A DNA stretch of 64,000 nucleotides from Iphione sp. A-MEVVRFRX5 (taxonomy: Eukaryota). Positions within the stretch are counted from its first letter, which is position 1, and each line of letters starts with the position of its first letter. Positions 35,613-58,948 of this stretch are shown here, piece by piece. The notes under the pieces are model-generated. The model saw only the letters and a program-made list of their open reading frames with translations, made no database searches and was not told the origin of the DNA. Made by a program: the position numbers and the translations under genes. The stretch lies in the NCBI GenBank assembly GCA_976226885.1, contig OZ320319.1:49910001-49974000 (forward strand). The letters run 5' to 3'.

Positions 35613-36819
35613 TTTTAGTTTAAGGAAGACTTTTCCGGTCTCTAGTGTGGGATTACTTGCAAATGAAGAAACTAGCCACACTGGGATGGGTTTTCACCCT
35701 TTTATTGAGGATTATGCACGAGGGGCATGAATTCTCAACCTGGCAGTAAAGTTATGTGGCAATATATCCTTTCTGGTAGAGGAGTTGTCTACTGTCAGAG
35801 GTTCCACTTAATAAAAATGAATTATGCTTATGTGTTGGTGTTTTGACTAATAAAATGATGCAGCTTACTGAGTTGGTGTTTTTCTCCTATGTCTGAACCT
35901 GGGTCAGCCTAGTAGATGTAGAAATGGCTTGGATGGCTTCAAGGTCCCTCTGGTGGTGATGTTCAGCTGTCTGTTCCCAGATCAGATCTGTCTGAGTGGG
36001 TCAGATGTGGCTGCTTTTAAAGGGCCTGGACTCTGTGCTAATGAGGGAGGGAATCAATCAGACCTTTTGGCAAAGGTACACCCTCTGTCCAAGGGTAGAC
36101 CTTCTGCAAAAGGTACCTTTCTGCAAAGGCATGATGTAATATAGAGTATTGACCCAATGTGGTATGGGGGGAGGGGAGGCTGGTAAATCAGACCTTTTGC
36201 TAAAGGTAGGAGAGAACCTTTTGTCAAAGGTGTAGGGGTGGGGACCTTTTGTCAAAGGTGTATATAGAGTATTGATCTAATATGGTATGGGGGAGGGGAG
36301 ACTGGTAAATCAGACCTTTTGCTAAAGGTAGGAGAGAACCTTTCGTCAAAGGTATAAGGGGGACCTTTTGTCAAAGGTGTAGAGGTGGGGACCTTTTGTC
36401 AAAGGTGTAGGGGAACCTTTTGACAAAGGTATGAGGGGAACCTTTCAGAAAAGGTGTGAGAGGGGGGGGGACCTTTTGCTAAAGGTGTAGGGGGATCTTT
36501 TGCCAAAGGTATAGGGGAACCTTTTTACAAAGGTGTGGAGGGAACCTTTTGCTAAAGGTGTAGGGGGACCTTTCGCCAAAGGTATAGGGGAACCTTTTGG
36601 CAAAGGTATGGAGGGAACCTTTTGGTAAAGGTATGGAGGGAACCTTTTGCTAAAGGTGTAGGGGGACCTTTTGCTAAAGGTGTGGGGGGGAACCTTTCGC
36701 TAAAGGTATAGGGGGACCTTTTGGCAAAGGTATGGAGGGAACCTTTTTCTAAAGGTGTGAGTTATGATTGAGACTGGATTTCTCTGATGGGGAATTTTTG
36801 AAGAGTTGATAACTTAACA
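35613..36819 (-). repeat. Gypsy B 3' LTR (1207 bp)
   Basis: Direct repeat of 57841-58948. Begins TGTTAAG and ends CTAAAA on the minus strand; preceded by the PPT AGGAGGG (36820-36826). Confidence 0.95.
36060..36757. repeat. LTR U3 array of about 25 palindromic units ACCTTT-N4-AAAGGT (about 24-25-bp period)
   Basis: Counted by eye; the 5' LTR copy (about 58288-58885) has about 4 fewer units. Confidence 0.9.
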
Positions 36820-37470
36820 CCCTCCTAAGAACCGAAAAAGATGTGTTGCCACTACACCAATTTCCCTTTTCGGGTGAACTGCCAAGTCAGAGGAGTCATG
36901 CTTTAGAATACAGGAAACTTATCAGATGAGGAGGTCACTCGCTTTTATGGAGCCTCCTTTACCTTACATACCAGTGATTACATTGTTGGGCATACTGTTA
37001 AGTCATGTCTTAAAATCCAGGAAAGTTATCATATGAGGAGGTTGCTCGCTTTTATGGAGCTTCCTTTACCTTACATACCAGTGATACATCATCTATATAG
37101 TGAGAGAGTAAAATACAAGGAGTTTTAATCTCGCTCGCTTTTATGGAGCGATTACTAATGATACCAATAATAATTGTATTTAGTAATTGATCAACCACCA
37201 AGATACATCTAGATAAGACAACAGTTTTCTTATATGCATTTCTGAGCCTTTTACCTGTTTTGGACACTGTTTTGTCTAGTATTGAGCCGTATATGTTTAC
37301 ATGTTTACAAGGTTACCTACAAAGCATTATATAGAGGGTCTAACTACCATAATAATCATGTTCCCATCCGTTTCTTAGAGTCAATCGGAATTATGCATCT
37401 TAATGTCTTTAGAAAAAGTCACCAGAGGCCAGGCTTTTGGTGGATCCAGCATGAGTGGGACCAAAGAAAT

Positions 37471-40094
37471 TTATAATCTTATTCTGTATCTTTGGGGTCG
37501 GGCTGGTGTCACCGAGGCTGGCTCTTCAATTACTTTAGCAACATCAAGTTTTCGGAGAAGGTCGCCGTATGAGGGTGGAGCAGATATTTCTGACTCTGCC
37601 TTTGGGGGAGGGTTGCCAGGTAATGGTGGACAGGTGGGGACTGAGGGAAGTTCCGGATAGATTCCATTCTGAAGTGGTTGGGCCCAACCCTGCTGTCCCA
37701 AGATCACTGTCTGGGAGGGGAGGTCTGGAATTACGCTCATGAGATTGTTAATATGTCTTCCCTTCCAAAGAGGCACATGCACCACTGCGGGAAGCGTAAC
37801 CTTACGGGTTGAAATGTGATCTGTTCGGTAGAGGGGGTTGGAGTACGTAAGGTGAATAGAATAAGAAAGCCAATGCTTCTGTGCCGAGATAGAGGTGACC
37901 TTGGAAACCAGAAAGGTGGTAGAGGGGAGTGCATTATTCCGGAATTCATGAAGAAGGAGGGTGGTGTGGTCCTGAGGCTTTCCTATTTTAAGAAGAATTC
38001 TGAATCCTGGGGGGGATGGGACAGGGCCTGTTCTTGGAGATCTGTGCGTAACAAGTTTGAACACTGTTTGGAGGAATTTGCTCAGAGCCCAAATGCAAAA
38101 TAAAACACTGGCCATCACTTGCATAGTATCCACATGGTCAAAGGTTACTACAATATCTGGTTCAGGCGATGGAGTTGGCTTAGGGGTTGGTCCTAGAATT
38201 ACTGGGGCTGCATGGGTGAGTTTGGAAAGGGATATGAAGAAGGTGATTTTGTTGACTTTCTGTAAAAGAATAAACAGGAAGCCAGCAAGGATCATAGTCA
38301 CTATGGAGTGTACTGAATTCCATACCCAGATGACGGGGCTAGCTATCCCTTGGGCTCGGGAATATAGCCAAGTAGGCCAATGCGCCATTGATCTATCTCT
38401 TTCAATTGCTGCCTGTCTTGCTCTGGCTATATCGTTGGCTACTTTTGTAAGGGCTATACCTGTATTTTTGGGGAGTGATCAGGATAGATTTAGGGAGAGT
38501 TCATCATCGAGTTGTATATTAAAGAAGAATGACTGATTATAGGTAGAGGAAGCTGTGAGGTTGGGAAAGGAAAGGTTAAAGGCTAAGGCTACTGCTAAGT
38601 TAATACTGTGTATAGGGATTTCTACTTGTGTTCTGTTGCAAGCGCTATATGACCGCTTCATGTATGGGCCTACATGGAGGGTGCAATTGCATTCAGGGGT
38701 ATAGGTGCATAAAGGGCAATCTAGGACCTGCTCTTTCCTAGACATTTTGTATGTACCTTGGCTGGCCCTGCTGATATGAGGAAAGTGTCTCCTAAATCTT
38801 TTACATAAGGGGTCATGGGGGAATCGGGGTGCACTGTGAATTGACAGACTTCTTGGGATGGGCATTCTGGTGAGAAGAAGAGGGTTGCTGAACAAAAGGA
38901 TACTGGATCATCATTAACTGGTGGAAGTGACTCGCATGTCAGGACATCATGTCCTCGGCAGCGAGAGATGTCCTGGTCTGATAATTCAATGAAGGAGCGC
39001 TGGTTCTGTGAGATAGAAATATATGCTGGCATGTTTTGTATGTGGGTGTATCCTTGTGTTTTGGTTGCAGAGAAGGGTGTGTTAAAAGAGTGTATGCGGT
39101 AGAGGTCGTGTATGTCTTTTGGAGTTCCCACAGGGACGGCAAGGTGTAAAAACAGTACATTTTCAGTGTACATGAATTGTGCGAGGGCATGCTCGTAATA
39201 AAATGTAGGGTCTCCAACTAGCACTTTTTCTCTTCCCTGTAACTTCTTCTGAACGTTGTGAAGCCCTACTCTTACCTGGTTTGGTGAGACTAAAGCTCCT
39301 GGAAGTTTGCCTACTATTAGATCTCTGATACCTGATGTGAATTTGAGATACTGTTCCCTAAGATCATGCAGATGTATAATTTTTAAGGTGAGCATAGTGA
39401 TGTATGATTGAAGGTGGTATTCAAGGTCGATGTCCTGGGATTGGTTTATTAAGATTTTTCTCAGCTGTTTATTAACCTGCGCTGCACGATGTACTGACTG
39501 TAGTATTGCATCATTCTGGTATTGAATCTGCTGGGTTAAAGTTTGGATGGCTATATTAGTTGTATTTGCCAACATTGAGAGTTGAGTTCTAATGGCATGT
39601 AATTGTTCTGGACCTACTTGTGCTGCCAGAATATCTACTTTGTGTGAGACTTCATTAACATCACCCTCTGTGGCTGTGCCAATGAGGAATTTAGAGGCGT
39701 CTCCCAAAAATCCGAACCATGCTCTTGGCTGTCTACCTACTGTTTGTGATACTGGTGCCATCAGAAGTGAATTAAGTTGGTTTTCCTCATGTCTAACTGT
39801 GTGAAAAAGATCTTGATAGTACATGTTCATATCCCTTATGAGGATTTCTAAGGTACGGCAGGATGGTCGGCGAGTGCATGGGAGCTGGTCCTGTCGTCCA
39901 AATGTCGACATTTTTCTTTGAAGAAATGGTGCTGGTCTAGGGATGACGAAGAGTAGGTCAATGCTTCTTGCATTGGCAAGGAGTGGGTTGGGAACTTTCT
40001 CATATATGACTCCAAGGTTTTGCCGAAGGACATAATTTGTAGGGTGTGTACCAGGGATGACGAAAATGAGGAGCAGCAGGACGAGCCCTTCCAT
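37471..40094 (-). CDS. env: Env, baculovirus F / errantivirus-like class I fusion protein; frameshift at about 38735 and in-frame TGA at 38479-38481
   Basis: Signal peptide, furin-type RQPR (39723-39734) followed by the fusion peptide AWFGFLGDASKFLIGTATEGDV, heptad region, Cys-rich region and TM segments. Confidence 0.88.
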
Positions 40095-40256
40095 GCTGAC
40101 CTGGAATGATATGGTTTAGTTCTTAGGTGAGAATCCTGATTTGATCCGTTTATGTTTTATAATACGTTTTAGAGATTATATTAAAACCAGCCCTCCTGGG
40201 TGATGGGAGAGAAATTATTCTACCACTGAATAACAAGAAGAGTACAAGTGTTGTTT

Positions 40257-42434
40257 TCAAGGCTTTATTATGTCACACTCCAGGCCGAAGAGTGATCTAG
40301 CAAGGGCTTCCTCCATAGCCTGCTGCGCTGCCCGCAAGTTACGTAAGTGCCCGACGTGGTGGCGTTGGGCACGTAGTGCGAGCACGCACAAATAGTTCCA
40401 CTGTTTGTGGTCACCAGCTGGGATGGGTGGGTGATACCCATTCTCCAAAAATTGGACTAACCAGCCCCGGACGCTTTCTGTTGTATTGGGCTGAGTCAGC
40501 CTTAGAGAAAGCGATGTACTCACCCGGGGGGTAAGGTCCAATATGGAGTCCATGAGGAGTGTGGGTGCCGTGGACCAGTTTTGCAGCATGTGGTGCTGCT
40601 GTGTGCCGTCAGGTGCGTGACCCGACCCGAACTGGATGTGGGGTTGGCTTCTGAGTGGCACGCAGGGCTGGTCGTTGGTATGTTGTGTGAGACACCGCAC
40701 ACATATCTTGCGGCGCTCCAGTTCCTTCTGTAGGTGGTTGAGGAAGGCCGCCTCTACCTCTTTAGCTTTATAGGGCCGGTCGGGGTAGTGTGAGCGGAAA
40801 ATGCGCGCATGCTCCTTACCTCGGAGAGTGTCGAGTCCCGGGAGATAATTTGTAATCTCGTGACCCGGTTGCCACATGAGGAGGGGGTGGGAGTTTTGAT
40901 GGGGGGGTTGTGCGGGTGGAGGGAGAAGGGGGAGGTTATTCCTGGGGATTCGACCAAGTCGCGGGATATTTAGGGTCCTGTTAAGGTGTTTCCGACTAGT
41001 ATGGGGGGTGTGGTGGTTTTCTAGCTGTGGGAGTTCATCTTCAGAGGAGGGGGGGTTATCAGTTTTGTTCAGGGCCGCTGGTTGGTCTTCATCAGATTCT
41101 GATGCTAGGGGAGTGCGTCGGTGGCGCCTAGCGGGGGCTGTGGTCTCGTCGTCCGAGTCACTGGCGGGTGCTGGACGGCGGCGGCTGGGGAGGGTCGGTC
41201 GTGTGTCTGTGGCAGGGCTGTGAGGGTGGAGAGGAGTGTCAGCCCTAGGGCTGTTCGCCTCCTTCTCCTGGGTGTCAGGGATGATCGGGGTGTCCAGTTG
41301 GAGCCGGTAGGGGTCCTGATCAGTGGAGGTGGAGGGCTGGGGGGAGAGGGGGCAAGTGGTGAGGGCATTGAGAAGGGCTTCTGAGGGTAGGAAGGAGGAT
41401 GGATCAGCCGTGGAGGTGGAGGGTTGAGGGGAGAGAGGGTGAGTGGTGAGGGCGTTGAGAAGGGCTTCCGACGGTAAGAAGTAGGACGGGTCGGCTGTGG
41501 AGGTGGAGGGTTGAGGGGAGAGGGGGCGAGTGGTGGGGGTATTGAGAGGAGCTTCCGAAGGTAGGAAGGAGGACAGGTCGGCTGTGGAGGTGGAGGGTTG
41601 AGGGGAGAGGGGGCAAGTGGTGAGGGCATTGAGAAGGGCTTCCGACGGTAAGAAGGAGGACGGGTCGGCTGTGGAGGTGGAGGGTTGAGGGGAGAGGGGG
41701 CGAGAGGTGGGGGTATTGAGAGGAGCTTCCGAAGGTAGGAATGAGGACAGGTCAGCTGTGGAGGTGGAGGGTTGAGGGGAGAGGGGGCGAGAGGTGGGGG
41801 TATTGAGAGGAGCTTCTGAAGGTAGGAAGGAGGAAAATGGATTCACATTGGATGTGGATGGGTGGGAGGAATGAGTGAGGGGGGAGGAGCCAGATGCATC
41901 TGCGGGAGACGAGAAGGCTAGACCCACTTTGGGTGCATCATTTTGGGGGATGAGGGTATTAGTGGGGGCTGTGGGGAGAGGGTTGGTGGTTAATGGGCTT
42001 GCTGGTAGGGAGGGGGGGTTTGTGGGGACTGCTGGAGACGTGGAATTCTGGGGGAGGGGGGAGGCTCGGCCAATAGTGGTGGTTGTGCCTGGTTGGGGGG
42101 GAGCAGGGTTGGTAGTGTTATTGGGACCTTTGTGTGTCAGGGGAGGGAAAGAGGATGGAGTAGCTGTTGGTTTGCTCAGCTTAGGAGAGGGGGGGTGTGT
42201 TTGGCCAGCAGTGATGGAGGGTTCTGAGGGGGGGGTGGAAGATGGGTCCGGTTGGGTGGGGGGTATAGGAGTAGGGGTCATTGTGGGATCCGAGTTGTGA
42301 TTTGTCACCCTCTCCATTAGCCTGACCATGTCGCGCATGAGGCCCACAAATGCTGTGCCGGAGCTGGTGAAAGCGTTTCTGACCGCCTTCTCAGCCTCGG
42401 TGAGGAGGGCTTCGGATAGTGTGCGGCCGGCCAT
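40257..42434 (-). CDS. 725-aa accessory protein: Pro/Ser/Thr-rich, 6 x 29-aa repeats, C-terminal CxxC-x3-H-x5-C module
   Basis: Intact ORF with an AG acceptor 2 nt before the ATG; CVRCLTQHTNDQPC. Confidence 0.75.
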   Translation of the reverse strand: MAGRTLSEALLTEAEKAVRNAFTSSGTAFVGLMRDMVRLMERVTNHNSDPTMTPTPIPPTQPDPSSTPPSEPSITAGQTHPPSPKLSKPTATPSSFPPLTHKGPNNTTNPAPPQPGTTTTIGRASPLPQNSTSPAVPTNPPSLPASPLTTNPLPTAPTNTLIPQNDAPKVGLAFSSPADASGSSPLTHSSHPSTSNVNPFSSFLPSEAPLNTPTSRPLSPQPSTSTADLSSFLPSEAPLNTPTSRPLSPQPSTSTADPSSFLPSEALLNALTTCPLSPQPSTSTADLSSFLPSEAPLNTPTTRPLSPQPSTSTADPSYFLPSEALLNALTTHPLSPQPSTSTADPSSFLPSEALLNALTTCPLSPQPSTSTDQDPYRLQLDTPIIPDTQEKEANSPRADTPLHPHSPATDTRPTLPSRRRPAPASDSDDETTAPARRHRRTPLASESDEDQPAALNKTDNPPSSEDELPQLENHHTPHTSRKHLNRTLNIPRLGRIPRNNLPLLPPPAQPPHQNSHPLLMWQPGHEITNYLPGLDTLRGKEHARIFRSHYPDRPYKAKEVEAAFLNHLQKELERRKICVRCLTQHTNDQPCVPLRSQPHIQFGSGHAPDGTQQHHMLQNWSTAPTLLMDSILDLTPRVSTSLSLRLTQPNTTESVRGWLVQFLENGYHPPIPAGDHKQWNYLCVLALRAQRHHVGHLRNLRAAQQAMEEALARSLFGLECDIIKP
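41323..41840 (-). repeat. Coding tandem repeat, 6 x 87 bp (SFLPSEAPLNTPTSRPLSPQPSTSTADLS)
   Basis: GTGGAGGTGGAGGG recurs at 41323, 41410, 41497, 41584, 41671 and 41758. Confidence 0.95.
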
Positions 42435-44009
42435 GACTGAATGCTGTGCAGTGTGGCTGGAATGGTATGTAATGTGCTTATCATGAAAAAGGTATTGCAG
42501 TACAGTGTCTGTTGTCTTTGTGACCTGAGGAGGGCTTCGTGGTGTTTGATTGTAATGGTTATAATATCGTACAGATGCAGTTATCCTATGAACTTTTTTA
42601 TAAACGTTGTGAGTAATTTGAAGTCCATTTATATTGATGGGAAAGGATCTAATAAGGTGCCAAATTTATAGGGGGGGGAACATAACAGGACATTTTAAAT
42701 GGGAGGGATTGAGAAAGATACAGAATGTAATGGGGAAAAATATAATGGTACTGCTTCTCAAATGGGGAGGGTTTGCAGGAAGGGGCAGAATTGAGGGACA
42801 CTGAAGGGCTACTTTTAAGGTGGAAAGAGTGTAAAAAGGTACTGAATTCAATGGGGGAGGGTGTGAAATGGACAGCAATTCGATGGAGAGAGATGTGGAA
42901 TGTGCAGAATTCAATGGAAAAAGACATCAAAATAATACTTGGAATGGGGGGTGCAAATTAAATGGGGATAAGGTGAAGCTTAGGGGCACTTACTAGTTTG
43001 TTCTGAGGAAGAAATCTGTGATGTGAAGATGTACAGGCTGAATATCCTTTCTGATATATTTTGTCCTGCCTTTTTCCTCTCTTTGAGATAAAAAGTGCCT
43101 GGTGGGGGGAAGGCTAATGTGGTGTCCAAGGTGTAGGCCTAGGTAGAAGTGGGGCTGGGACAGTATAGATGGTGACTTTTATATGAAACATGTGAGCAGT
43201 GGTTGTATTGAGGTCTTTATTATCTCTTTGTAACATATTGTACGCATTGATTAGCATGCTTTTATGTGAAACGTTTTGGGTCTTAGAATCTCTGACTTTT
43301 AACAAAGCTGCTGTTCTTGTTTGGTACCCTTTTATGTGAAAACGTTGGGTCTTTGTAAATGTAACTGACTCTTATTCCTAACACAGATGCTCACGCCATC
43401 CTGTTGACTACTATTGTTCACTTAACCGTCATGTTTTCGGCTGTGTGCACTCCTGCCACCTCGTCTCGTTCGTAGTCTGAACAAAAGACACTGTGTTCGC
43501 GCTAGGCAACATGTTTCCTGGCCACTCGCCACATTGTTTCGTCTATAATTCTGACAAAAGACGACGTGTTTGCGCTAAGCGCCACGTTTTTCGGGCGTAC
43601 ATACGTACGCGTGGCTTCATGTTTTTGGTTATTTCATACCATACAGCATTAATTGTTAGGGTTTTTGTCAATTTTTGATTCGACGACAACAGCTTTACGG
43701 CCGTACGCACGAACATACGTACGCGCAGCATCATGTCGACTTCAATCCAAGAATTATGCTTACTTTGTCTCTTTATTCGTCCAAAAACCCTTAGTTTCGA
43801 TTCATCTAAGGGACTTATCCCTTAGTTTCATACCAAAAAGCATTAATTCAGGGTTTTTGTCTATAATTTCGACTCGACAACGCCACAATTCGACCTTATC
43901 CTGGTACCCTTTCCTCGATTTCGTACGAACTTAAGGTATGGGAACCAGAACGAATGTTACTTCCGGTTTGCGGCGTAGTTGTCGAGCATCGATGTTCTTC
44001 CTGAATATA

Positions 44010-44600
44010 ATCAGATTTTAAGAAAAAGCCCAGGCAGTTTCGGCCGAAAACTCAGGTGAATTCGTCAAAACCCAGGTATAATCATCCGAAAATCCGGGAA
44101 ACTCAGGTGAGTTCGTCCGAAAAGCATCAAAACTGAGGTAATTTCGTCTGAAAATCCGGGGAAACTGAGGTATTTTGTGTGAACATTTGCGAAACTGAGG
44201 TAATTTTGATTGAGTTTTGACCAAACTGAGACATTTTTGTGTGAAATTTGGAAAACTTGGGTAAATTTGTGTGAGAATTGCCAAAATCTAGGGGTTTTTG
44301 TGTGAGTTATGACAAAACTTGGGTAAATTTGTGTGAAATATTGCAAAATCTATGGGTTTTTGTGTGAGTTATGACAAAATCTGGGTAAATTGTATGAATT
44401 TTGACAGAAACTTATGGGTTTTTGTATGAGTTTTGATGAAATCTGGGTAAATTTGTATGAAATTTTGGCAAAATGTATGGGTTTTGTATGAGTTTTTGAA
44501 GAATCAGGGTAAATTGGTATAAAATTTGGCAAAAACTTATGGGTTTTTGTACGAGTTTACCGGCAAAGTGTGGGTAAATTTGTATGAGATTTGGCCAAAT
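44010..44600. repeat. Degenerate non-coding minisatellite, about 25-31-bp units
   Basis: AAAACTCAGGTGAATTCGTC-type units grade into alternating AAAACTTGGGTAAATTTGTGTGA and AAAATCTATGGGTTTTTGTGTGAG units. Confidence 0.8.
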
Positions 44601-44838
44601 TCGGGGACCTTGGTGGATACGAATACTTTTAGTTGAATAAAGACGTCTTTTGCTGATTAGGAATGTTTTTAATAACCCTGAGCATAGACATATGACAGAA
44701 AGAGGAGAGGATTCTTTTGCAATTATGCTATGAAAATGTCCTTTTGTAGTAGAATATTTATGACTCTCTATGAGAGGGATGAACGCCACTGTCTGTTTGT
44801 TCCTTATTCTTAGTGTTTGTGCATATATACATATATTT

Positions 44839-45375
44839 TCAGTCCTTGTCCTTTTGGTGGCGTGGTGAACGTGGAATCCCCGCTGCAATGATGTTCATTT
44901 CTGGGGTATGAGAGGAGTAGCAAGATGTGTAGGTGAGTACTCCCTTCATTGCCACTGCCTTATGACGGTCAGCAGAGGGGGATATGATTGGGATGTGCTG
45001 GTAACTGTGTAGTGTCACCATGACAAGGGTGTCCCATGCGGGCAGGAAGTGTGTTGGGAGGTTTGGCTCCTTACGGGTGTGAAAATAGTTTGTAACCAGT
45101 TGTATCACCCCTAGTTGTACAAGGGTGCAGTTTAGGTTAAAGAACCGCCCCTCCTGCCAAGTGGGTAGGATGACTCCCATGTGAGTGTCAGTTAGTCGTG
45201 CCAGTCTGTCTAGCATCCAGAATCTTTCCAAGGGGGTTATGTCAGGGTGCCGGATCCCTGTTTTCTGGCCAAATAATACGCTAATGAGGGCGGGATCACA
45301 GTCTGCAAGGGTAGGCTTGTCTCCTTACAGAATGGATTGGGCCCTTCTTGTAGCTCCGGTGTAACGTCCCATCAT
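44839..45375 (-). CDS. Accessory paralog 4 (178 codons, in-frame TAA at 45325-45327)
   Basis: MMGRYTG...SIL*GDKPTLADCDP...GIRHPDITPLERF...PAWD; same length as paralog 3 and colinear with it. Confidence 0.75.
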
Positions 45376-45759: not shown

Positions 45760-46296
45760 CTAATCCCAGATTTCTAGGTCTGGTGGTGTGATGGGTCTAC
45801 CCGCCGTTAGGAGGTTACTGTGTAGCAGTGTGGGCGTGTAGCAGTGCACGTATGCACGTACTGCTTGTATGGCCGCCTCTCTGTGGGGCTTCCAGTTGTA
45901 GGGGCCGATTGGCCAGCGCTGAAAGTGGTTCAGCATGACCATTACAAGGGCATCCCAGGCAGGTAGAAAATGTTCTGGTAGGTTCGGCTCCCTTTGTGTC
46001 TGACAGTATGTTACCAATAGTTGAACCAGGCTTATCTGCACAAGGGGAGAGTCCAGATTGAAGAATTGGTTTCCCTGATAGCCGGGAAGGACGATTCCCG
46101 TGTAGGTATCTGTTGTGTAAGCCAGCCTGTTGAGCATAAGGAATCGTTCCAGGGGCGTGATATCAGGGTGGCGGAGGCCTGTTCTCTGTCCAAAAAGTGC
46201 ATTGACGAGGACCGGTTCGCAATCCACAAGGCTCGGTTTAATGCCCTGTAGTACAGCTTAGGCTCTCGTGGTGGTTCTAACGTAGCGACCAGTCAT
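45760..46296 (-). CDS. Accessory paralog 3 (178 codons, in-frame TAA at 46258-46260)
   Basis: MTGRYVRTTTRA*AVLQGIKPSLVDCEP...GLRHPDITPLERF...PAWD...REAA. Confidence 0.78.
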
Positions 46297-46454
46297 GTCC
46301 TGAAGTAGATATTTGAGAGTCATATTAAACTTCTGTGGGTGGTGTCTAAGGTCTAGAGGAATGATGGGTGGAGGGGGGGGGGGTTTGAGAATTGAGGATG
46401 GGATTTCAGGGAATCTTGTTACCTATGTTACTGGCATATGCTGAGGGTTCCTCT

Positions 46455-47009
46455 CTAAGGGATGTTTGTGGTTGTATCCCATTCATTGTCATCATAGGTG
46501 GGTGTTGGGGGGTACAGGCCCGCGTATAAGAGGTTGTGGTTAACCATGTGTGTAGCTGAAGTTTTTTGCATATATGCGCACAACCCTTTTACTGCAGCCT
46601 CCCGCACGTGGTCTGTGGCCTGTGATAGTCGGGATGTCATCCGCAGGGCTCTGAAGGCCTCTACGGCTAACTGGTCCCATACTGGACAGAGGTGTGCTGG
46701 GAGAAGTGGTTCTTGTGCAGTCCTGAGGTAACGGGCGAGGACCCGTACGATAGATAGCTGCACCAAGAGTGAGCCTAGGTTTAGGAGTGTTCGTTTCCAG
46801 GGGAGAACAACTGCCCCAAGGGAGTCAATACGGCTCGCAAGGTGTTGCAGTAGCTCATAGCGCCGAAAGGGTGTGACCCTAGGATGACGTAGGCCCCTAT
46901 CAGGCTGGTAGAGACCCAGGGTCAGACGTGATATGCAGTCCTCGATCTCAGGCATTGCTCCATCTTGAAGTTCCCGAAGTCGGGTGGATACTTCGTCATA
47001 AGTATTCAT
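46455..47009 (-). CDS. Accessory paralog 2 (184 aa)
   Basis: DRGLRHPRVT...PVWD...REAAVKGL. Confidence 0.82.
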   Translation of the reverse strand: MNTYDEVSTRLRELQDGAMPEIEDCISRLTLGLYQPDRGLRHPRVTPFRRYELLQHLASRIDSLGAVVLPWKRTLLNLGSLLVQLSIVRVLARYLRTAQEPLLPAHLCPVWDQLAVEAFRALRMTSRLSQATDHVREAAVKGLCAYMQKTSATHMVNHNLLYAGLYPPTPTYDDNEWDTTTNIP

Positions 47010-48932: not shown

Positions 48933-49652
48933 TCAAAGATCAGTCTGAGCAGGGACTGGATTCTCCTCTGGAACGGGTTGGTGAGGCGGCTCGTGAACGG
49001 GTAGGCCTGGCGGGACGGGGGGGGTGATATCCCGGGAGGATGAGATATCCCTCTGGGGTGAGCCATCCCCGCGGGGTGAAGTATCCCGTCGGGGCGAGAT
49101 ATTCCCGCGAGATGGGGTATCTTGGCGGCGTGGGTAGTGCGCCTTGGGGGATCGGTACAGGTTGGCTGCCAAAATGTCCATGCGTGCAGGTATATGGGAG
49201 GTCCTCTTCATGTATTTCCCGAGGGCTCTCACGGCTGCTTCTCTGGCCTGACTCGTGGCCAGAGAGAGCCCGACAGTGGATCGGAACTCTGCAAGGGCCA
49301 CTGTCACTAGACTGTCCCAAGCGGGGTAGTACTTGGGCAGCATAGGAGGTGTCTGATGGTCCTTGAAGTAGGCCATGAGCATGTCGTCCACCGTAAGCTG
49401 GGCCATTGGGTATTCTAGGTCGTAGAAGTTGCCTTTCCAAGGGTGAAGCACTGCGCCCGTTGCTTCTACGGTGTAGGAAAGGTGCCACATGAGCTCGTGT
49501 CGATACCCGTCTGTGACTCTGGGGTGGCGGAGCCCTCTGTCGGACTTGAAGAGCTCGGGGGTAAAGGCCGGCATGCAGTCTCCTGGGATCGGCAGCGCCC
49601 CTTGGAGAAGGAGTGACTGCTGCTCTCGGATTTTCACATACCGGCCTGCCAT
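48933..49652 (-). CDS. Accessory paralog 1 (239 aa, with an R/S/P-rich tail)
   Basis: MAGRY...DRGLRHPRVT...PAWD...REAAVRAL, followed by ISPR/TSPR repeats. Confidence 0.82.
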   Translation of the reverse strand: MAGRYVKIREQQSLLLQGALPIPGDCMPAFTPELFKSDRGLRHPRVTDGYRHELMWHLSYTVEATGAVLHPWKGNFYDLEYPMAQLTVDDMLMAYFKDHQTPPMLPKYYPAWDSLVTVALAEFRSTVGLSLATSQAREAAVRALGKYMKRTSHIPARMDILAANLYRSPKAHYPRRQDTPSRGNISPRRDTSPRGDGSPQRDISSSRDITPPVPPGLPVHEPPHQPVPEENPVPAQTDL

Positions 49653-50339
49653 AACCTGCGAATGTTGAGATAGAGAGAGATGTGAGAGATCTCTTCAACT
49701 ATTCGTAGGATTTTGAGAAGGGCCATACTACAAAAGATAGAGAGGGGTGCATGTTTTGCTAATCCCAGGTTCTCATGGGTGGGGTTTCTTGTGACGCCCA
49801 GTATTTCTATTGGGGGTTTCGTATCTCTAGGGGGGGTTCAAGCCACCAAGATGAAAGCTCCCAAATGGAGGTTTCTACAAAGGGAGTGCCTTTTGGGAGA
49901 AGGGTGAGCTACTAACTCTATGGGTGAGGTGAGAATCAGACTGGATTAGTGCAGGGCAAGACGAGTCTTGGATGGCGGCCCCTTTATTTTGAAGCCCTGT
50001 CGGCAAGCCTTAGGAGTTATGCTGGGGATCTTTTGTGGTGAGTGTTTGTGTTGATTGCAGGTGTGAGGTCAGATACTGCAAACTACCTTGGGGGTCTGTG
50101 TATAAGCCTCCTATTGACTCCTCACTCAGGGCAGAGGTAGCTAATCTCTGCTACTGTCTTTGAGTCATGTACCTTTTTCGCTTGGAGGTAGGGGAGTAAC
50201 CAGATTTGAGAAAAGGCAAATTACTAGGCACTGTACATGTGGGTTGGCTTCTTTCTGGTAGCCTCTTTTTCCTATTTTCCTTCATGAAGAAGGGCTTTAT
50301 TGATGAGTGTGGACTCCTTCATCCAATTCTAAATTCTTT

Positions 50340-50675: not shown

Positions 50676-51026
50676 GGTACTATATCTCATAGTCCTGTTT
50701 ACCTCATTTTACTTCCTTACTTTAAGCTGCGTACATGTGCATGTGGACGTCCATTCATATGTTCGTATAACTTTTAGATTCCTCTTCTTATTCTTGTTCA
50801 ACATTGTGGGCTTTTTGCCTGTACTCCTGCATTATAATCAAGGGGAGGGGTCATAATGGCTCTGATGGGAGCACATCTTCCCTGCAAGATCTTGCCTTTT
50901 TATCTGTTGTTTTTAGAATTACGCCTTTCTCTTAGAGGTGTTCCCACCTTGGTTCTTTGGAATAACATTACTTATAGGAAAAAAAGGGGGGTTGCTGAAG
51001 GGTCTGACAAGGGTTCTCTTGCCGTC

Positions 51027-54000
51027 TTAGGTTTTCTTCCCTTTGCGCCTTGTTTGCAGAAGAGACGTCCAGGTGGCAGCGTCCCACCACCGTTTCGGCC
51101 TCCTCTTAGTACGCTGTGGTCGGATTACCTTTTGGGGACATACTGGGGGTTGGTTGATGGTATTGGATTCCGAAGAGTTTGGATTAGGCCCGATGATGAC
51201 CTTAGTGTCTTTTCCAGGGTGATCTTGGTTGGCTTGTTCTATTATGATCTTGTCTGGGTTGGGAGGTAAGTTGAGGCGCTCCAGTCTCACAACAGGGTCA
51301 AGTTCACTTAGGCCCGCCTCTGTCTGACGTGGGCGTCGGGGGGCAATAGGGGGATGAACTTGTATCTTGAGGGGATGCCCGGGTCTTAGCTGCTGAAGGG
51401 GGTCATCCCCTATTTTATCAGAGAATGCATCTTGAGCTTTGCTTTGTGAGCGTGTTACGGGTCCCTCTGTTTGTGTTCTGGGGGTTTCTGGTATTACAGG
51501 CATGGAGAACTCTGAGGGGCCCTCAGATTCTTCTTCAGAAAGGGCAGGGGACTCACTGGAAGATTTAGAGTCTGAGAGCGGGGGAGAAGTGGGAGAATTG
51601 GACCGAGATGGAGCTGGGGTTTCAGGGTCTTCACTCGATACATCTTGGGTTGTTGGATGGCTTGCATTGTGGACTGATCTTATAATAGGGTGGGTACGTT
51701 CATGTAAACTTTGTGAGGTAGAGGGAGTCTCAAGGGGAGGACCCTCATTCTGAAAGGGGGATGAGGCATTTGAGGCAGGTGATATGTCATCTTCAGGGAA
51801 TTCCTCGTTGGTGCTAGGGATAGCAGATATAGTTTTCTTTAGCCTGCTGATGGTTACTGGTCTGGCCAGATGTCTTTTAGTTTGAAGGCATTTCAAAAAG
51901 ACAGTAGAGTCAGTCTGAAATCGGGTAATGGCATAAGGTCCATGGTAGACCTTGGCCAGTTTCAGTTTGAGTGAGCTGTCCTTTAATTTAGGCATGTATA
52001 CCCATACTACATCACCCACCTGGAGATCCGGCTTATAGGTGTGCTCATCATGTCTTGCCTTCATGGCTAGGGCATATTTCTCAGAAGTCTTTTGTGCAGC
52101 CTGATGAGCTTCTTGTTGGGCCTGCAGGTGGGCCCCGAATCTTTGTCGTGTGTCCATTAATTCATCTTCGGAAATGGGAATGGAGTTCATTTCGGGACGG
52201 CGGGGTTCATACCCGTTTAGGAGGAGATAGGGGGTCTGGCCTGTGCGGGTGGCCTTTGTGGTGTTTAGAGCAAAACATATTCCAGGGAGGTAACAATCCC
52301 AGTTGTTTTGGTCTTTGCTAACATAATTTCCCAAGACAGTCAGAAGCGAGCGGTTGGCCCGCTCGACCAAGCCTGAGGTCTGGGGATGACCTGCCGTAGC
52401 AAATTTCTGTTTGATTCCGTTTTTCCTACAATAATTCATAAATCTATCTGAGATGAAGGCTGAACCATTATCTGAGACTATAGTATTGACTACACCAAAA
52501 CGGTAAACAATATGTTCTTTAAATTTAGAAATAAGAGTATCTGCTCGGAGATCAACTTGTGCCCATGCTACTAGGAATCTGCTATAGTAGTCTACTATGG
52601 TAATGATATGTCGGTTTCCTCTCTTGGTGAGGGGGAGTCTTTCGATGGCATCCATATTAATGGTATGCCATGGTGCTGGCGTTGGATCTCTCAAGGTTAG
52701 AGGGGGTCTTATAGGGCGTGTCATACGTTTGGTTTCGGAACATTTGATACAAGTGGCGCAATACTCGTGCACATCTTTGCTCATTCCAGACCAAAAGAGT
52801 GACTCTCTCATTCTGGTAAGCATTTTTACTGGGCCCAGGTGTCCTGCATGTGGAGGGTCATGATTCTGTTGGAGAAATTGTTCCCTAAGTCCCATGGGGA
52901 CAATAAGTCTGACATTTGTTCTGGCATTAGGTCCAGTGGTTGATGACATTCTAAAGAGAAGCCTTTTATAAAGAAAATAGTCTTCTTCATGGAGCAGAAT
53001 TTCATGCGCCAGTTTGTCGTCCTTTGGGCGTATCCCATATTTGATGAATCCAACTGTCTGCTGACAGAAGGTATCATCTTTTTGCTCCTTAAGAAGATCT
53101 TCAATGGGTATGTGTGATGAGTTTAGATGTTTCTCTGCCCCAGAGTGAAGGACAAATTGTCTTTCTCTTCTCTTACGGTGCTTAGGTTTGTTAAGAAATT
53201 GGGGAGTCCCTGACTTACTGGTGGTATGAATAGCGTTTGCTTCTAAGGGCTTAAGCTTTTTATCTCTGGGTTTCCTGCTGGGAGGAGGACAGGGAGGCTC
53301 TTTGTCAGGAGGGGTGTCGAGCCGAGAGAGGGCATCGGGGACATAATTGGAGGTCCCTGCTACATGTTGGACAATGTAGTCAAACCGTTGGAGGAATTCC
53401 ATCCATCGGATAACTCGGCTCTCTTTATGCTCTAAGGATTTTGTAACTAAGATATGAACGAGAGGGTTATGGTCAGTTTGGATGGTGAACTTGGCTCCTT
53501 CTAAATAAACTTGCCAGTGCTTGACTGCGTAAAAGACAGCAGCCATTTCCTTGTCTGTCGTGGAGTAATTAAGCTGGGCTCCTTGAAAGGCTTTAGCCCA
53601 GTAGGCTATTGGTCTAAGATTTCCTTCCCAGTCTTTTTGTGACAAGCTGGCGCCCATTCCATAGTTACTGGCATCAGTGGCCAAAAAGAATTCATCATTA
53701 AAGTTTGGGTAAAGAAGAAACTGTTCATCGGTCAGGGCTTCCTTAAGTGTTTGGTATGCTTCCTCTTGTTCAGGTCCCCAGAAGAATTTTGTACTCTTTC
53801 TTGATAAGTCATAGAGGGGTTTGGCTTTAAGGCCATAGCTGGGGATAAATTTTCTATAATAGCCAGTCATTCCTAAGAATCGGCGTACCTGGCGGACTGT
53901 GGTTGGAGTATTCATTTCTTTTATTTTCTGAGTATTGTCAGGAGAGGGTTTAATGCCTTCAGTGGTTATAATGTGACCTAAGAACTTGACTTCTGAGTGC

Positions 54001-56213
54001 CCTATCTCACATTTATGAGGGTTTGAGTTTAAGTCCTGCCTCGATTAATTGGTCAAAGACTTCTCCAAGGTCCTGCATATGTTGCTCAAATGTGGGTGAA
54101 AAGACTACTATGTCATCCATATATGCCAAACAGATTTTATACTTTAATCCTGACAGAACTAAATCCACTACACTTTGAAAGGATGCTGGAGAATTTTTAA
54201 GACCCATAGGCATAGTTTTGTAGCGGTATTTTCCTGAAGGGGTGAGGAAGGCTGTTTTATCCCTGTCCTCATCACGAATAGGGATCTGATGGAAGCCCAT
54301 CTCTAAGTCCATTACAGAAAGAAATTTAGGTTTGGTGTGCCCGATTGCGTCTATAGTATCATCTACCCTGGGGATAGTAAACATCTGTGTGACCGTTTGT
54401 GTATTTAGATTTCTATAGTCAACTACTAATCTGAACTTTCCATTAGGTTTTGGCACTAGAAAGGCTGGGCTAGCCCATGGGCCGTCCCCTGCTCTTTCCA
54501 GTATATCTTTTTCTTCCTGATCTGCTACTATTTTGTCAAGTTCCTCCCTCATTCGGGGGGACATGCGGAAGGGTTGTGCCTGTGTTGGGAAGTGGTCTGG
54601 TTTTAATTCAATCCTATGCTCTACCAAGTGGGTTCTTCCTATGTCTCCCTGTAAGACGAATGCTTCTCTCTTGGATAAGAGGAGATTGTGACAAATTGCC
54701 TTTTGTTCATGGGTGAAATTGGAATTAGATAGGTCAACTGGTATATTCAAAGAATTGGTGTTGAGGGAATTTATTTGTGTCTGTGCAGGCATGATGTTTG
54801 TATAGGGGTTTCCCTTTGTAAAAGTTCCTACTCGAAATCCTTTCTTTAGCTGTTCTGGGCGGGAGGAGTAATTTAAAACAGAATAGGGATACGGTTGTCT
54901 ACAACCTTCACAATAGCTTCCTTATTGGTTCTAAGGTTTCGGGGGGTCGATGACAAGGTGTCCGTATACAGGCCTTCGTAGGGGTCTAGGGAATCCCCCT
55001 TCCCAAGGATCTGTCCCCATAAGAGGGTTTCTGTTCCAGGTTGAAGGAGTATATCCTCAGGAAGGGCGACAGAGTATTGGGTAGGGGTTTTAAGGCCAAA
55101 GGAGAGGTTCATGGAAAATTGATGCAAAAATGATCGACCTAGGATGATGTCATAGGAAAGTCCAGGAACCACGTGTAGGGAAACAGGGTAGGTACTATCA
55201 TCAATGGGGATGGGCAGGTGAACTGTCCAGGGAGATCGGGAGACTGTCCCATTAGCCATAACACATTCTGTTTTAGAGGGGGAAAGGCGTATGGGGGCCC
55301 CACCATCTTTTAACTGGTTAAGGGCTTTTAGGCTCATACAGCAACCTTCCGCTCCTGTGTCTACAAGGGCTGTGAACACAAGGCCTTCTATAGGGATTTT
55401 GGTAGTGCTATTGCCTGTCAATGAATGGCGAATCAACTCCCCATCACCAGTGGTAGTTTTACTCGTTCTAGATAAAAGGATCCCTTGGTTAGGTACATGC
55501 CGTGATTGGGCAACAATAGAAAAAATTTCTTTGGTTTTTGGAGGGAAGTTAAAGTCCATATAGAGCTGGTGATGTTCTATTTCTTCAGGGAGGATCCAAT
55601 GCTCAACATGCAGAGGACAGGCAGGCACCCTATTACATCTAGGTTTAAGTGTTTCTCTATTGACTTCCCTACTCCAGTATGAGACCTGTCTTGTTACACA
55701 TGCTTCTAAGGTTCCACAGTTTGGAACATCACAGGTACCATTCTGGTGTTCTAATATTCTCCAATGTAACAATGTAAGTACATGATATTCTAAACTATTA
55801 ATACATAAATTATCAACAATTGCACAATCACATTTCATTTGGATAGATAAATCAGGCTTAAGCTCAGAAATGCATATACATCGGTTAGGACAATGAGTAC
55901 AATCAAAACGTATACCTCTATGACCATTGTGGACTTCTACCATATGGTCCACAGTCTTAGCTTGAGTCTTTTTCTGGGAGGGCTTCCCTGGGCAGAGAGG
56001 ATGTGATTTCAGCGTTGTATATACAAGGTTCTTAACCCAACCCAAGTTTTCCTCGGGTAGACGAGGGTAAGGTTTAGATAAGATTATACACAAAAATTTC
56101 TTCCCCGGTTCAGGTGAACTGGAGTCCTTAAGGTTTACATTGGTCCCTTCGTCTGTCCGGGATGTCAGTGACTCCCAATACTTGGGTGATTTGGGAGTCT
56201 GGTCTAGTTTCCC
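51027..56213 (-). CDS. pol: Gypsy B pol (Cys/His-rich domain, protease, RT, RNase H, integrase); 1-bp frameshifts at about 54875 and 54020
   Basis: LVDTGAE; WASPAFLV...YMDDIVV; LATDASNYG...DALSR; HHCC; DAIE/SDNG/ERANR; GPY. Confidence 0.95.
56170..56213 (-). promoter_or_regulatory. -1 programmed ribosomal frameshift signal (G_GGA_AAC, 7-nt spacer, 9-bp hairpin)
   Basis: The in-frame heptamer (56207-56213) lies directly before the gag TAG. Stem GACTCCCAA/TTGGGAGTC. The -1 frame is open into ORF 54873-56093. Confidence 0.85.
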
Positions 56214-57795
56214 AGGTGGGGGAAATTGGCCCCACTGTAGCGATCATGGTCCCCACGGGTCCGTTCTATGGGGCGGTTTCTGGGGGCGCCTCTATCTTCC
56301 CATGGCTGCGGGGGAAGACGTCTCAGTGGTTGAGGAGAGGCGGACCGGTAGGGCTGGGATTGAGGGCCCCTATTACGAGGAGGGTGATACTTTTGCTGAG
56401 TGTTTTGGGGATATTGGGGCCTTCTCCCCCGTGGTCCTCTCCCTCTTTCAGAGCGTTGTGGAGGAGGGCGGGCACGTTCTTCCATGTCCCGTCTCTTGGT
56501 GCGACATTCCCTAGCATAGTGTCCCCTTTTCTGGCAATAATAGCATGTTAGGTTGGACTCAGGAGGTAAAGGATCTGAGACTGGTTGGGTTATGTTGGGA
56601 GGGGGACGGGTGGTACCCCCAATTGTTCTCAAGGTGACTGCTGCTATCTCACTGGGGAGTTCTTTCATTAGTTCCCTTTTAAGGGCATCTACTACTGCCT
56701 CCATTTTTGAGATCCTTTTACGAAACCCTCCCTGGGCATGCCATGCTTCTCTGGCATCCTGGACTGCCTTATCAAAAAGGGGACTGTCCGCACCTTCATA
56801 GATTCCCTTAATTCTGGGAGTATATTTTCCATAAAAATTCTTCCTGCCAGCTCATCACTATCATGTCCTGCAGCTACACAAACTTTCATGAGCCTATCTG
56901 CAAACTCAGAGGGATGTTCATCTGGTCTCTGCTTAGTGGCACGAAGCCTATCACCCAGTTCTATTGGGGGCGGTCCCTTTTGTTCTATCAAGAATTTCCT
57001 TAGCTCATCCCAAGTGGGGTGAGCCTCTATATAAAGGTGGGCAGTACGGGGGAGGAAGGCTCGAGCCTTTCGGTAGCAATATTCTTTCCAGCCATCCCGT
57101 GCTGCTCCACCCTGTCCTCCCTCTTGAGGATTAGGATTCTCTTCCCCATAGATGTCCTTAATGTAGTCTTCATACTGGTGTACCCAGTCTACTACTTGAT
57201 AGGGGTCAGAGGGGAACATACCTGGTCGTTTAGGCATAATAGTCAGTCTTTTAGCAAATGCTTCAATCATACCCTCATCTGCCATGTTTCTTAATGCACG
57301 TTGCCCTTCCCTGACATTTATAAGGTTACCACTTACTGGTTGTTGAGTCGGGTAGGATGGTGTAGGCTGGGGTGTACGCGTTGGCGGCTGTCGTGATGGG
57401 CCTGGTTGGGGCTGATGGAGCTCTAGTGACTGTCTGGAGGTAGAAGGATGTGGCTCTGGTAGAAGTAGAGTCCTATGTGGGCCTGGTTGAAGGACCGATG
57501 ATGGTGCCCGGGGTGTTGTAGTGGCTGGAGATGAAGGGGATGTTGGGCCTTGTTGTGGAAGACTAGGAGGAGTGGACCACGCTGTGGGCGAAGTTGACCG
57601 TCCTGGTGGCGAGAAGGATGGACGTCGCTGGCTTGGAGTGACTGGTAGTTGCAGGGGCGTCCGAGGAAGGCTGGTTGAAGATTTACCAGATGAGATGCGC
57701 CCTCTTTCTTGAGACCTGCCTTGTCGGGTGGCACTGGAGGTGAGCCTGTGCTTGGCAGTGAGACTTCTCGTGGTAGGTCGGGAGATATGAGCCAT
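56204..57795 (-). CDS. gag: Gypsy B gag (P/S-rich N-terminus, capsid, CCHC); 1-bp frameshift at about 56775
   Basis: LRATKQRPDEHPSEFADRL is capsid-like; CYYCQKRGHYAREC zinc knuckle. Confidence 0.9.
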
Positions 57796-57823
57796 GCACT
57801 AGTACTGCCAGGTGGTGAAGTTA

Positions 57824-57839
57824 CCCGGGTTCTCCACCA
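57824..57839 (-). promoter_or_regulatory. Primer-binding site, tRNA-Ala-like
   Basis: TGGTGGAGAACCCGGG starts 1 nt after the 5' LTR; the first 10 nt are complementary to a tRNA-Ala 3' end (UUCUCCACCA). Confidence 0.6.
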
Positions 57840-57840
57840 G

Positions 57841-58948
57841 TTTTAGTTTAAGGAAGACTTTTCCGGTCTCTAGTGTGGGATTACTTGCAAATGAAGAAAC
57901 TAGCCACACTGGGATGGGTATTCACCTTTTTATTGAGGATTATGCATGAGGGGCATGAATCCTCAACCTGGCAGTAAAGTTATGTGGCAATATATCTTTT
58001 CTGGTAGAGGAGTTGTCTACTGTCAGAGGTTCCACTTAATAAAAATGAATTATGCTTATGTGTTGGTGTTTTGACTAATAAAATGATGCAGCTTACTGAG
58101 TTGGTGTTTTTCTCCTATGTCTGAACCTGGGTCAGCCTAGTAGATGTAGAAATGGCTTGGATGGCTTCAAGGTCCCTCTGGTGGTGATGTTCAGCTGTCT
58201 GTTCCCAGATCAGATCTGTCTGAGTGGGTCAGATGTGGCTGCTTTTAAAGGGCCTGGACTCTATGCTAATGAGGGAGGGAATCAATCAGACCTTTTGGCA
58301 AAGGTACACCCTCTGTCCAAGGGTAGACCTTCTGCAAAAGGTACCTTTCTGCAAAGGTATGATGTAATATAGAGTATTGACCCAATGTGGTATGGGGGGA
58401 GGGGAGGCTGGTAAATCAGACCTTTTGCTAAAGGTAGGAGAGAACCTTTTGTCAAAGGTGTAGGGGTGGGGACCTTTTGTCAAAGGTGTATATAGAGTAT
58501 TGATCTAATATGGTATGGGGGAGGGGAGACTGGTAAATCAGACCTTTTGCTAAAGGTAGGAGAGAACCTTTCGTCAAAGGTATAAGGGGGACCTTTTGTC
58601 AAAGGTGTAGAGGTGGGGACCTTTTGTCAAAGGTGTAGGGGAACCTTTTGACAAAGGTATGAGGGGAACCTTTCAGAAAAGGTGTGAGAGGGGGGGGACC
58701 TTTTGCTAAAGGTGTGGAGGGAACCTTTTGCTAAAGGTGTAGGGGGACCTTTTGCCAAAGGTATAGGAGAACCTTTTGGCAAAGGTATGGAGGGAACCTT
58801 TTGGTAAAGGTATGGAGGGAACCTTTCGCTAAAGGTATAGGGGGACCTTTTGGCAAAGGTATGGAGGGAACCTTTTTCTAAAGGTGTGAGTTATGATTGA
58901 GACTGGATTTCTCTGATGGGGAATTTTTGAAGAGTTGATAACTTAACA
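57841..58948 (-). repeat. Gypsy B 5' LTR (1108 bp)
   Basis: About 7 substitutions relative to the 3' LTR, plus a 99-bp difference in the internal repeat array. AATAAA at about 57929-57934 (minus strand). Confidence 0.95.

Follow-up and report, generated by a model that had tools for sequence, protein, structure and literature searches.

A giant env-carrying Ty3/gypsy lineage in Iphione sp. with a native array of paralogous accessory genes, a family also represented in a DNA transposon

The 64,000-nucleotide stretch of the Iphione sp. A-MEVVRFRX5 genome analyzed here (assembly GCA_976226885.1, contig OZ320319.1, forward-strand positions 49,910,001 to 49,974,000; hereinafter, the window, with positions counted from its first letter) contains, on the minus strand at 35613-58948, a long terminal repeat (LTR) element of 23,336 bp. 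This element is a recent insertion, since decayed, of a giant env-carrying Ty3/gypsy lineage. Between pol and env, it carries a native interval with five accessory open reading frames (ORFs), A1 to A4 and B, that belong to one paralogous family and evolve under purifying selection. Copies of the lineage encode one to five A genes plus B, and an A gene is also present in an unrelated DNA transposon. We propose, with confidence poised evenly between acceptance and rejection, that the A family acts in trans on the host cell, countering silencing of the element.

The pol-env interval is native to the element. Among the six best DNA matches to the element, which were fetched for sibling comparison, two (C1:91379040-91403149 and C11:26269800-26292930) are colinear with the whole element, with 91-97% identity across the interval, and each has its own LTR pair and target duplication; of the other four, one is truncated after A4 and the rest are either partial or interrupted. 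The region 42800-43600, unmatched in the initial BLAST comparison, aligns piecewise at 75-88%. The preliminary description of this DNA had left room for a separate nested insertion at 40.2-51 kb that would be missing from siblings; this segment is present in both colinear siblings, and nested insertion as the source of the interval is rejected on the strength of these siblings and of the gene order conserved in relatives.

The same arrangement recurs across the lineage. A search with env yielded 94 matches, which fall into classes of about 98, 88, 81, 75 and 49% identity. The fetched loci, which were picked by env, A or B similarity and hence are not a random sample, include 21 copies of 15.2-35.3 kb bounded by both LTRs; the order gag-pol-A(n)-B-env is retained in 17 of these, the remaining four being deleted or interrupted. 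All 13 loci picked by env alone have B, or part of B, upstream of env. There are one to four A genes per copy, and five in some older copies. LTRs across the lineage are 0.7-1.6 kb long, with the two members of a pair 99.9-100% identical in 9 of the 21 copies, and in several copies each of gag, pol and env is a single open frame, so that movement of the lineage must have been recent. The primer-site junction occurs 1,065 times in the genome, an upper bound on the number of copies with a 5' end. On the RNase H-integrase tree, thirteen elements form one clade (support 99/100); the closest database Pol is an unnamed protein with 42% identity, and the reference sequences on the tree are unnamed proteins at 35-42%.

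Some older copies of the window's subgroup (L010:6285-6875, L013 and L018) have an extra divergent A paralog just upstream of B. Copies of 34.3 and 35.3 kb have 19.5 kb in common at 94% identity and are about 70% identical over a 9-kb spacer, in which no transposon ORF was found; another 35.3-kb copy may have a nested piece inside. Relatives of 35.3, 34.3 and 20.8 kb are located inside TTAGGG arrays near contig ends (on C23 and at the starts of C11 and C13), some of them head to tail. The 27-35-kb families contain one to three antisense GDSL/SGNH-like paralogs in the pol-env spacer (Pfam E 0.036, short of the cut-off; for example, L052:8277-9083, plus strand), with homologs in 8 fetched locus groups; these genes are absent from the window's family.

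The accessory ORFs, of which the preliminary description saw at least five, number five here, but they are not five different genes: sequence and profile comparisons identify them as paralogs of a single family with a domain of about 175 residues. A1-A4 are 29-36% identical pairwise, and the C-terminal profile of B matches the A profile at 97.2% (E 3.4e-11). In an unrooted tree of 27 of the 33 aligned A rows (six short or degraded rows were dropped) and three transposon rows, A1 (support 100/99), A2 (96/95) and A3/A4 (99/99) each group across families, so that the duplications are older than the split of those families. Between families, the ratio of nonsynonymous to synonymous substitution rates (dN/dS), obtained by pairwise counting with the window's B in place of the broken C11 B, lies at 0.08-0.25 for 16 out of 22 comparisons of accessory genes; in the remaining six, synonymous sites are saturated, with the proportion of synonymous differences far above that of nonsynonymous ones. 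The corresponding values are 0.07-0.15 for env and 0.02-0.05 for the reverse transcriptase (RT)-RNase H region. Where measurable, these ratios point to purifying selection on the accessory genes.

AlphaFold2 produces confident all-helical models for A2 (predicted local distance difference test, pLDDT, 89.1, from 33 sequences) and for the B domain (89.2, from 12 sequences). No homologs of A were detected among 8,000 scored candidates in a sequence search; a search of 1.84 billion representatives returned one weak match (E 1.7e-5 over 30 positions, in a tandem-repeat protein) that we treat as chance, PDB sequences, metagenome contigs and viral contigs gave no match, and the Atlas search returned generic helical repeats only, with low recognition. 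Because the searched collections are poor in animal transposon ORFs, these blanks carry little weight. Foldseek found nothing for A at E<=0.001 in PDB and viral sets; the best VIA result for A was NusB (Z 4.1, root-mean-square deviation 3.4, 84 aligned), tied with unrelated rows, and the best fold match of the B domain had Z 2.4. These searches show neither a new nor a different fold for A and B.

The second carrier of the family came from the genome search with A2, which gave at least 150 matches. Among the 13 lower-identity matches examined, seven are in relatives of the element and six are in a 14-kb DNA transposon that is of the CMC/EnSpm type by its ends (Table 1). CMC/EnSpm transposons have terminal inverted repeats starting with CAC, together with a target-site duplication (TSD) of 2-3 bp. 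The transposon has terminal inverted repeats CACAG...CTGTG, seen at both ends of five copies and at one end of the sixth, and a 2-bp TSD in both copies checked; its 723-codon frame has weak matches, short of the cut-off, to Plavaka (E 0.0075) and DUF4218 (E 0.015). The transposon contains no gag, pol, env or LTR, and its DNA is not similar to that of the retroviral families. In all six copies, the A gene is open and has its own splice acceptor; the dN/dS of these genes is 0.25-0.39 (p 0.001-0.008; p<0.01 in all three pairs), and that of the transposase frame is 0.14-0.17. In the A tree, the transposon genes form one clade among the retroviral A genes, with support of only 83/77 for A1 as its sister, and the gene was probably transferred from the retrovirus-like lineage to the transposon.

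The architecture of the element is near certain, and the overall plan given in the preliminary description stands: an element of 23.3 kb with about 11 kb between pol and env, LTRs about 99% identical outside a variable array, an intact TSD, gag-pol followed by an F-like env, and structured repeats (Table 1). The end of pol and the start of env are 10,933 bp apart, and 41% of this interval is covered by the five accessory ORFs. Leaving aside the variable array of 24/25-bp units, the number of which is unequal between the two LTRs, these have 7 mismatches in 857 bp; the final 133 bases are identical, and ATCT flanks the element on both sides. The terminal dinucleotide of the LTRs is AA in most families, whereas the usual CA is found in the two longest copies. 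The primer-binding site begins one base past the 5' LTR, and the pattern matching it occurs at 24 genomic sites, of which all five inspected are tRNA-Ala(AGC) genes.

The gag gene, with a zf-CCHC match, is a single 531-codon frame in four sibling copies (C1, C10 and two on C11). Pol matches PF13975, PF00078, PF17917/17919, PF17921 and PF00665, in the order protease-RT-RNase H-integrase; these Pfam domains are of the gypsy type, the domain order by itself being compatible with Bel/Pao or Retroviridae as well. The Cys/His-rich domain is 55-90% identical over nine aligned copies; it was not seen in three inspected database Pol proteins, and Pfam, Atlas and a search of longer proteins yielded no homolog. 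The bridge of about 150 amino acids between RNase H and integrase is, by eye, compatible with the 'mini' domain of ancient errantiviruses. Env matches Baculo_F (Pfam E 6.5e-10 and 2.3e-9), with RQPR as the furin-like site, and is one frame of about 900 codons in relatives. At 37471-38478 (minus strand), Env extends about 280 residues beyond the first membrane segment, with the second hydrophobic segment and a conserved C-terminal domain (55-78% identity between families); there is no Pfam match. Tandem repeats occur at three places, namely the 31/62-bp array, a segment within B (41323-41834) and the LTRs. The element is young, as had been supposed, when judged by its LTRs, but the window copy is not coding-intact: as assembled, only A2 and B are unbroken. 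The other six genes are disrupted: gag, pol and env are each split, the A1 tail contains a frame break, and early stops relative to the siblings affect A3 and A4.

Table 1. Features of the 23-kb element in the window and copies of the A-carrying DNA transposon elsewhere in the genome
Feature	Position	Strand	Remarks
TSD ATCT	left 35609-35612, right 58949-58952	.	4 bp
5' LTR	57841..58948	-	1,108 bp; starts TG, ends AA; U3 with 19 copies of a 6+4+6 palindrome
Primer-binding site	57822..57839	-	18 nt, complementary to 3' end of host tRNA-Ala(AGC)
gag	56204..57795	-	one CCHC knuckle (Pfam zf-CCHC); two frames in window copy
Predicted splice donor	57331..57336	-	Val-Ser codons GTA AGT, phase 0, in gag
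pol	51027..56243	-	in three frame pieces; Cys/His-rich domain, protease, RT, RNase H, integrase and low-complexity tail
Cys/His-rich domain	55533..55925	-	conserved, upstream of protease
Overlapping stop-free frame over A1	48940..49698	-	stop-free in 4/4 families
A1	48933..49652	-	A domain and a tail rich in Arg/Ser/Pro, the latter frame-broken in window copy; acceptor 3 nt upstream of ATG
A2	46455..47009	-	184 aa, unbroken; predicted all-helical, pLDDT 89
A3	45760..46296	-	accessory paralog; early stop in window copy
A4	44839..45375	-	accessory paralog; early stop in window copy
31/62-bp tandem array	44085..44599	.	non-coding; ~70% conserved though family's synonymous sites are near saturation
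B	40257..42434	-	725 aa; Pro/Ser/Thr-rich repeats (87-bp unit x6) and C-terminal CxxC-containing domain, distant A paralog
AATAAA	40264..40269	-	end of B; predicted internal polyadenylation signal
Internal hairpin module	40191..40233	-	loop AGTG[GT]NA, T-tract, polypurine-tract-like stretch; tract degenerate in window's family
env	37471..40094	-	class I F-type, in three pieces; has signal peptide, furin-like site, two hydrophobic segments and an extended C-terminal region
3' hairpin module	36820..36857	-	loop AGTG[GT]NA, T-tract, polypurine tract
3' LTR	35613..36819	-	1,207 bp
A-carrying transposon copy	C22:24635335-24649612		
A-carrying transposon copy	C1:82766488-82780464		
A-carrying transposon copy	C11:31489106-31503086		
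A-carrying transposon copy	C22:25748469-25763180		
A-carrying transposon copy	C11:23224235-23238115		
A-carrying transposon copy	C4:14535043 onward		

The lentivirus- or foamy-like complexity attributed to the element in the preliminary description holds for its signals, that is, multiple predicted acceptors, an overlapping frame and an internal polypurine tract, but finds no support in its proteins: Pfam, PDB-sequence and fold searches found no match of the accessory proteins to regulators of the Tat/Rev/Nef/Tas/Bet/Tax type, a result compatible with remote kinship. A pyrimidine tract and YAG within 9 nt upstream of the ATG precede 26 of the 29 A and env starts (B starts are outside this count), compared with 56 of 714 ATGs in non-coding spacers and 304 of 2,826 other ATGs, under a rule fixed after inspection. 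The putative donor GTA AGT is found in phase 0 in all 8 families and in 5/5 further copies; in pol, GTA accounts for 28% of the Val codons and AGT for 12% of the Ser codons. No conserved splice donor was found in the LTR and leader. The second frame of A1 runs for 170 codons without a stop in each of the four families, where five to six stops are expected (P about 0.001-0.002 per family, the families not being independent), and the comparable frame in the nine other paralogs contains 3-9 stops. AATAAA is present near the B stop in all 11 inspected copies.

In 8/8 families there are two sets of hairpin, T-tract and polypurine tract, one ahead of env and the other ahead of the 3' LTR. Four of the five hairpin pairs change on both sides, and 96% of positions are paired as opposed to 30-56% in slid controls, the structure having been read from the sequences later used for the pairing test. 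The internal and 3' polypurine tracts are identical at 17-20 of 20 positions in seven basal copies and at no more than 15 of 20 in the window's subgroup. Rfam gave no matches at the gathering score over 35600-59000.

What these observations could mean for function depends most on the second carrier. Retention of A by both a retroelement and a cut-and-paste transposon suggests that its target is the common host silencing or defence rather than packaging or export, and because the transposon keeps A without reverse transcription, packaging or envelope, a host-directed role appears preferable to a role in the virion. Anti-silencing proteins borne by transposable elements and directed at tandem repeats have a precedent in VANC (PMC5735166; PMC6719617). 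An activity of the A family in trans against silencing would fit this pattern, and we accord it about the same chance of being right as of being wrong; any specific function assigned to the family is a testable guess.

A tentative scheme follows from established retroelement biology, from which tRNA priming, the Gag-Pol frameshift, spliced messages and Env-mediated spread are inferred. The full-length RNA would be primed by tRNA-Ala, and Gag and, by frameshift, Gag-Pol would be translated from it. Each downstream gene would have one acceptor, spliced to the gag donor or to an unmapped donor in the leader; messages for A and B may terminate at the AATAAA after B, with env and genomic RNA continuing to the 3' LTR. 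The second hairpin-T-tract-polypurine module, before env, could provide an extra plus-strand priming site for a template of 15-35 kb, and Env would make particles infectious from cell to cell. Least certain are two further points, namely that the A domain is a protein-binding module blocking a host silencing or innate-defence factor, and that the array grows and shrinks by tandem duplication, accordion-like. The most far-reaching version of this scenario, which we regard as conceivable albeit doubtful, is an active lineage of 15-35 kb, among the largest reverse-transcribing genomes, that uses splicing in the style of complex retroviruses to express an accordion of anti-silencing proteins with a new fold, portable across transposon classes, and that would be the first animal case of such genes common to a retrovirus-like element and a DNA transposon.

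Several observations weigh against the anti-silencing scenario or its parts. No fold or sequence match assigns a biochemical role to the A domain, which is not strongly basic (isoelectric points across the family 6.5-9.8), and the Arg/Ser/Pro tail of A1, which contains a basic cluster and is found in no other paralog, would suit an RNA regulator. The dN/dS values are far below 1 and thus provide no arms-race signature, and the weaker selection on the transposon A genes than on the transposase could partly reflect slow decay after capture. With regard to expression, the acceptor rule is post hoc and the genes are related, so that the counts are not independent; the donor motif is lost in one sibling copy; and the acceptor phases fit the gag donor in 15/20 A genes and 0/4 B genes, so that a single donor is insufficient and a second donor or independent starts are needed. 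Internal promoters for env have been described (PMC4402516). In the family to which the window copy belongs, the internal polypurine tract is degenerate, with 13/20 at best, and it is located at 0.8-0.9 of the genome length rather than in the center.

An alternative that we consider unlikely is that the A proteins are RNA regulators akin to Rev or CERV that export the unspliced RNA of 22-34 kb, possibly via the hairpins or the non-coding repeat arrays. Five or six acceptors and the internal AATAAA would create the need for help with export, the conserved hairpins and 31/62-bp arrays could serve as binding sites, and the basic tail and overlapping frame of A1 are features that such a regulator might have; CERV of Cer1, produced from a spliced mRNA, is a precedent (PMC10309623). 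However, the A gene kept by the DNA transposon is tail-less, with neither the hairpin module nor the LTR palindrome within the transposon ends; the basal families have a single, tail-less A; and five export-factor paralogs are hard to account for. Even if the root function of the family is different, A1 could have acquired an RNA-regulatory job, in keeping with its overlapping frame and basic tail.

Quite improbable, in our assessment, is the possibility that the A proteins are sequence-specific DNA-binding activators, in the manner of Tas/Tax or VANC, that act on U3 palindromes or on internal tandem arrays. VANC targets form tandem repeats (PMC5735166), the internal arrays are conserved, and, in addition to the 19 palindromes in the window's 5' LTR, related ACC(T/C)T-N6-A(A/G)GGT arrays are present in the LTRs of 4/8 families. 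Against such a role, the palindrome motif is missing from the A-carrying transposon, the U3 motif is conserved while the A paralogs diverge, which fits a host factor instead, and the isoelectric points given above come with no match to a DNA-binding fold.

Manipulation of host physiology (cell cycle, apoptosis, membrane traffic) or assistance to particle assembly or entry has only a slim chance of being the function of the family. Nef, Vpu and fish retroviral cyclins would be the analogues. The helical, protein-binding-type domain of A and the long mucin-like Pro/Ser/Thr region of B are compatible with such roles, as is the addition of antisense GDSL-like paralogs in the larger relatives, given that GDSL cargo is membrane-linked in rotifer elements (PMC5408684); a role in the particle leaves retention by the DNA transposon unexplained, and neither a signal peptide nor a membrane segment is evident in the A alignment. 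Finally, an origin of the interval as passive cargo or through nested insertion, with non-functional ORFs, is highly improbable, even with 59% of it non-coding and fast-diverging between families and with A1, A3 and A4 broken in the window copy, in view of the colinear siblings, the order conserved in 17/21 copies, purifying selection, conserved acceptors and a confident fold obtained from only 33 sequences.

The two carriers make directly testable the long-standing question of whether suppressors of host silencing are encoded by animal transposons. Only three anti-silencing mechanisms of transposable elements, all from plants, are listed in a 2019 review (PMC6719617). The A family is small and predicted to be well folded, has no known relative and is kept by two unrelated classes of transposons; the element itself, by its size, probes the limit of reverse transcription and packaging, and features of complex retroviruses appear to have arisen within a gypsy lineage.

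The surroundings of the element in the window include other mobile elements. A cluster at about 7300-25000, with an integrase and chromodomain, an A32-like ATPase, an adenoviral-type protease, a NADAR domain and a C2H2 protein, is likely a Maverick/Polinton element, judging by its gene content. To the left of the 23-kb element are a decayed, unrelated gypsy-like element (about 27200-31300, plus strand) and a piggyBac-type transposase fragment (DDE_Tnp_1_7; 33319-34194, plus strand). A GC-rich ORF of 388 codons at 61462-62628 (minus strand) has no Pfam match at E 1.

Of the suggestion of an undescribed lineage, the part that stands is a giant env-carrying gypsy lineage with a native accessory region; the word 'undescribed' itself rests on the open-access literature, in which no element of this plan was found (subscription journals, Repbase and Dfam being outside the search). 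Complex retroviruses have several short genes behind their own acceptors, an overlapping frame and a second polypurine tract. The present element is similar in having short genes behind their own predicted acceptors, an overlapping frame and a second polypurine tract; unlike these viruses, it has a Gypsy-type pol, an F-type env, accessory genes of one paralog family, and a genome two to three times larger. Foamy-like endogenous retroviruses of fish reach 17 kb (PMC6431247).

Among giant retroelements, Burro of planarians and Ogre of plants likewise exceed 20 kb, reaching 30 kb or more, and have extra coding capacity (PMC6431247). Burro has env homology, but its env lies between gag and pol within one polyprotein of about 4,900 amino acids, whereas here env is a gene of its own at the end; the large size of Ogre comes from LTRs of 1.9-6.5 kb, with one or two extra ORFs in an interior of 11-13 kb (PMC6431247), whereas the present element resides in an animal and combines LTRs of 1.1-1.2 kb with a 21-kb interior. 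The source of its size, unlike that of Burro and Ogre, is the pol-env array of separate genes and spacers.

With respect to accessory genes, Cer1 of C. elegans is also an invertebrate LTR element with a novel regulator, CERV, made from spliced RNA (PMC10309623), splicing being predicted in the present case; Cer1 has one regulator rather than an expanded array, and the A proteins have no detected similarity to any known protein (CERV was not directly compared). In bdelloid rotifer LTR elements, extra ORFs downstream of pol are similarly common to unrelated mobile elements, and GDSL-like cargo is found, matched here only in the larger relatives (PMC5408684); the rotifer genes are single ORF3 enzymes distributed among retroelements, whereas here tandem paralogs without a known fold are common to a retrovirus-like element and a DNA transposon. 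VANC of Arabidopsis VANDAL is likewise a transposon-borne accessory protein accompanied by tandem arrays in non-coding parts (PMC5735166; PMC6719617), but it belongs to plant DNA transposons and its function has been tested, whereas the A family is from an animal, is known from sequence, and has no detected homology to VANC.

Insect errantiviruses (gypsy, ZAM, Idefix) have a Ser, Lys or Leu primer site and an insect host (PMC13524379), from which the present element departs in its Ala primer site and in a host with TTAGGG arrays at contig ends. The genome as a whole has 44 innexin matches, 11 of them full-length in one frame, and no connexin match, in a search whose control likewise gave none; taken with the TTAGGG repeats, this suggests a non-chordate host, probably a lophotrochozoan. 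The 'ancient errantiviruses' with F-type env described by Chary and Hayashi (eLife 2026, PMC13524379) resemble it in gag-pol-env order, an F-type Env with a furin site and a hydrophobic peptide, a non-insect host and an Ala primer site; of the 167 'ala' places in supplementary file 1 of that paper, the first 30 include 6 rows from annelids. The annelid elements with F-type env and an Ala primer span about 9-12 kb from LTR to LTR, compared with 15-35 kb here, and the accessory array, the Cys/His domain before the protease and the duplicated polypurine module set the present lineage apart. The survey excluded regions above 10 kb, LTR pairs more than 14 kb apart and pol-env gaps above 1 kb (3-5 kb in the manual extension) (PMC13524379). 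Likened by architecture, the element appears closest in plan to these ancient errantiviruses.

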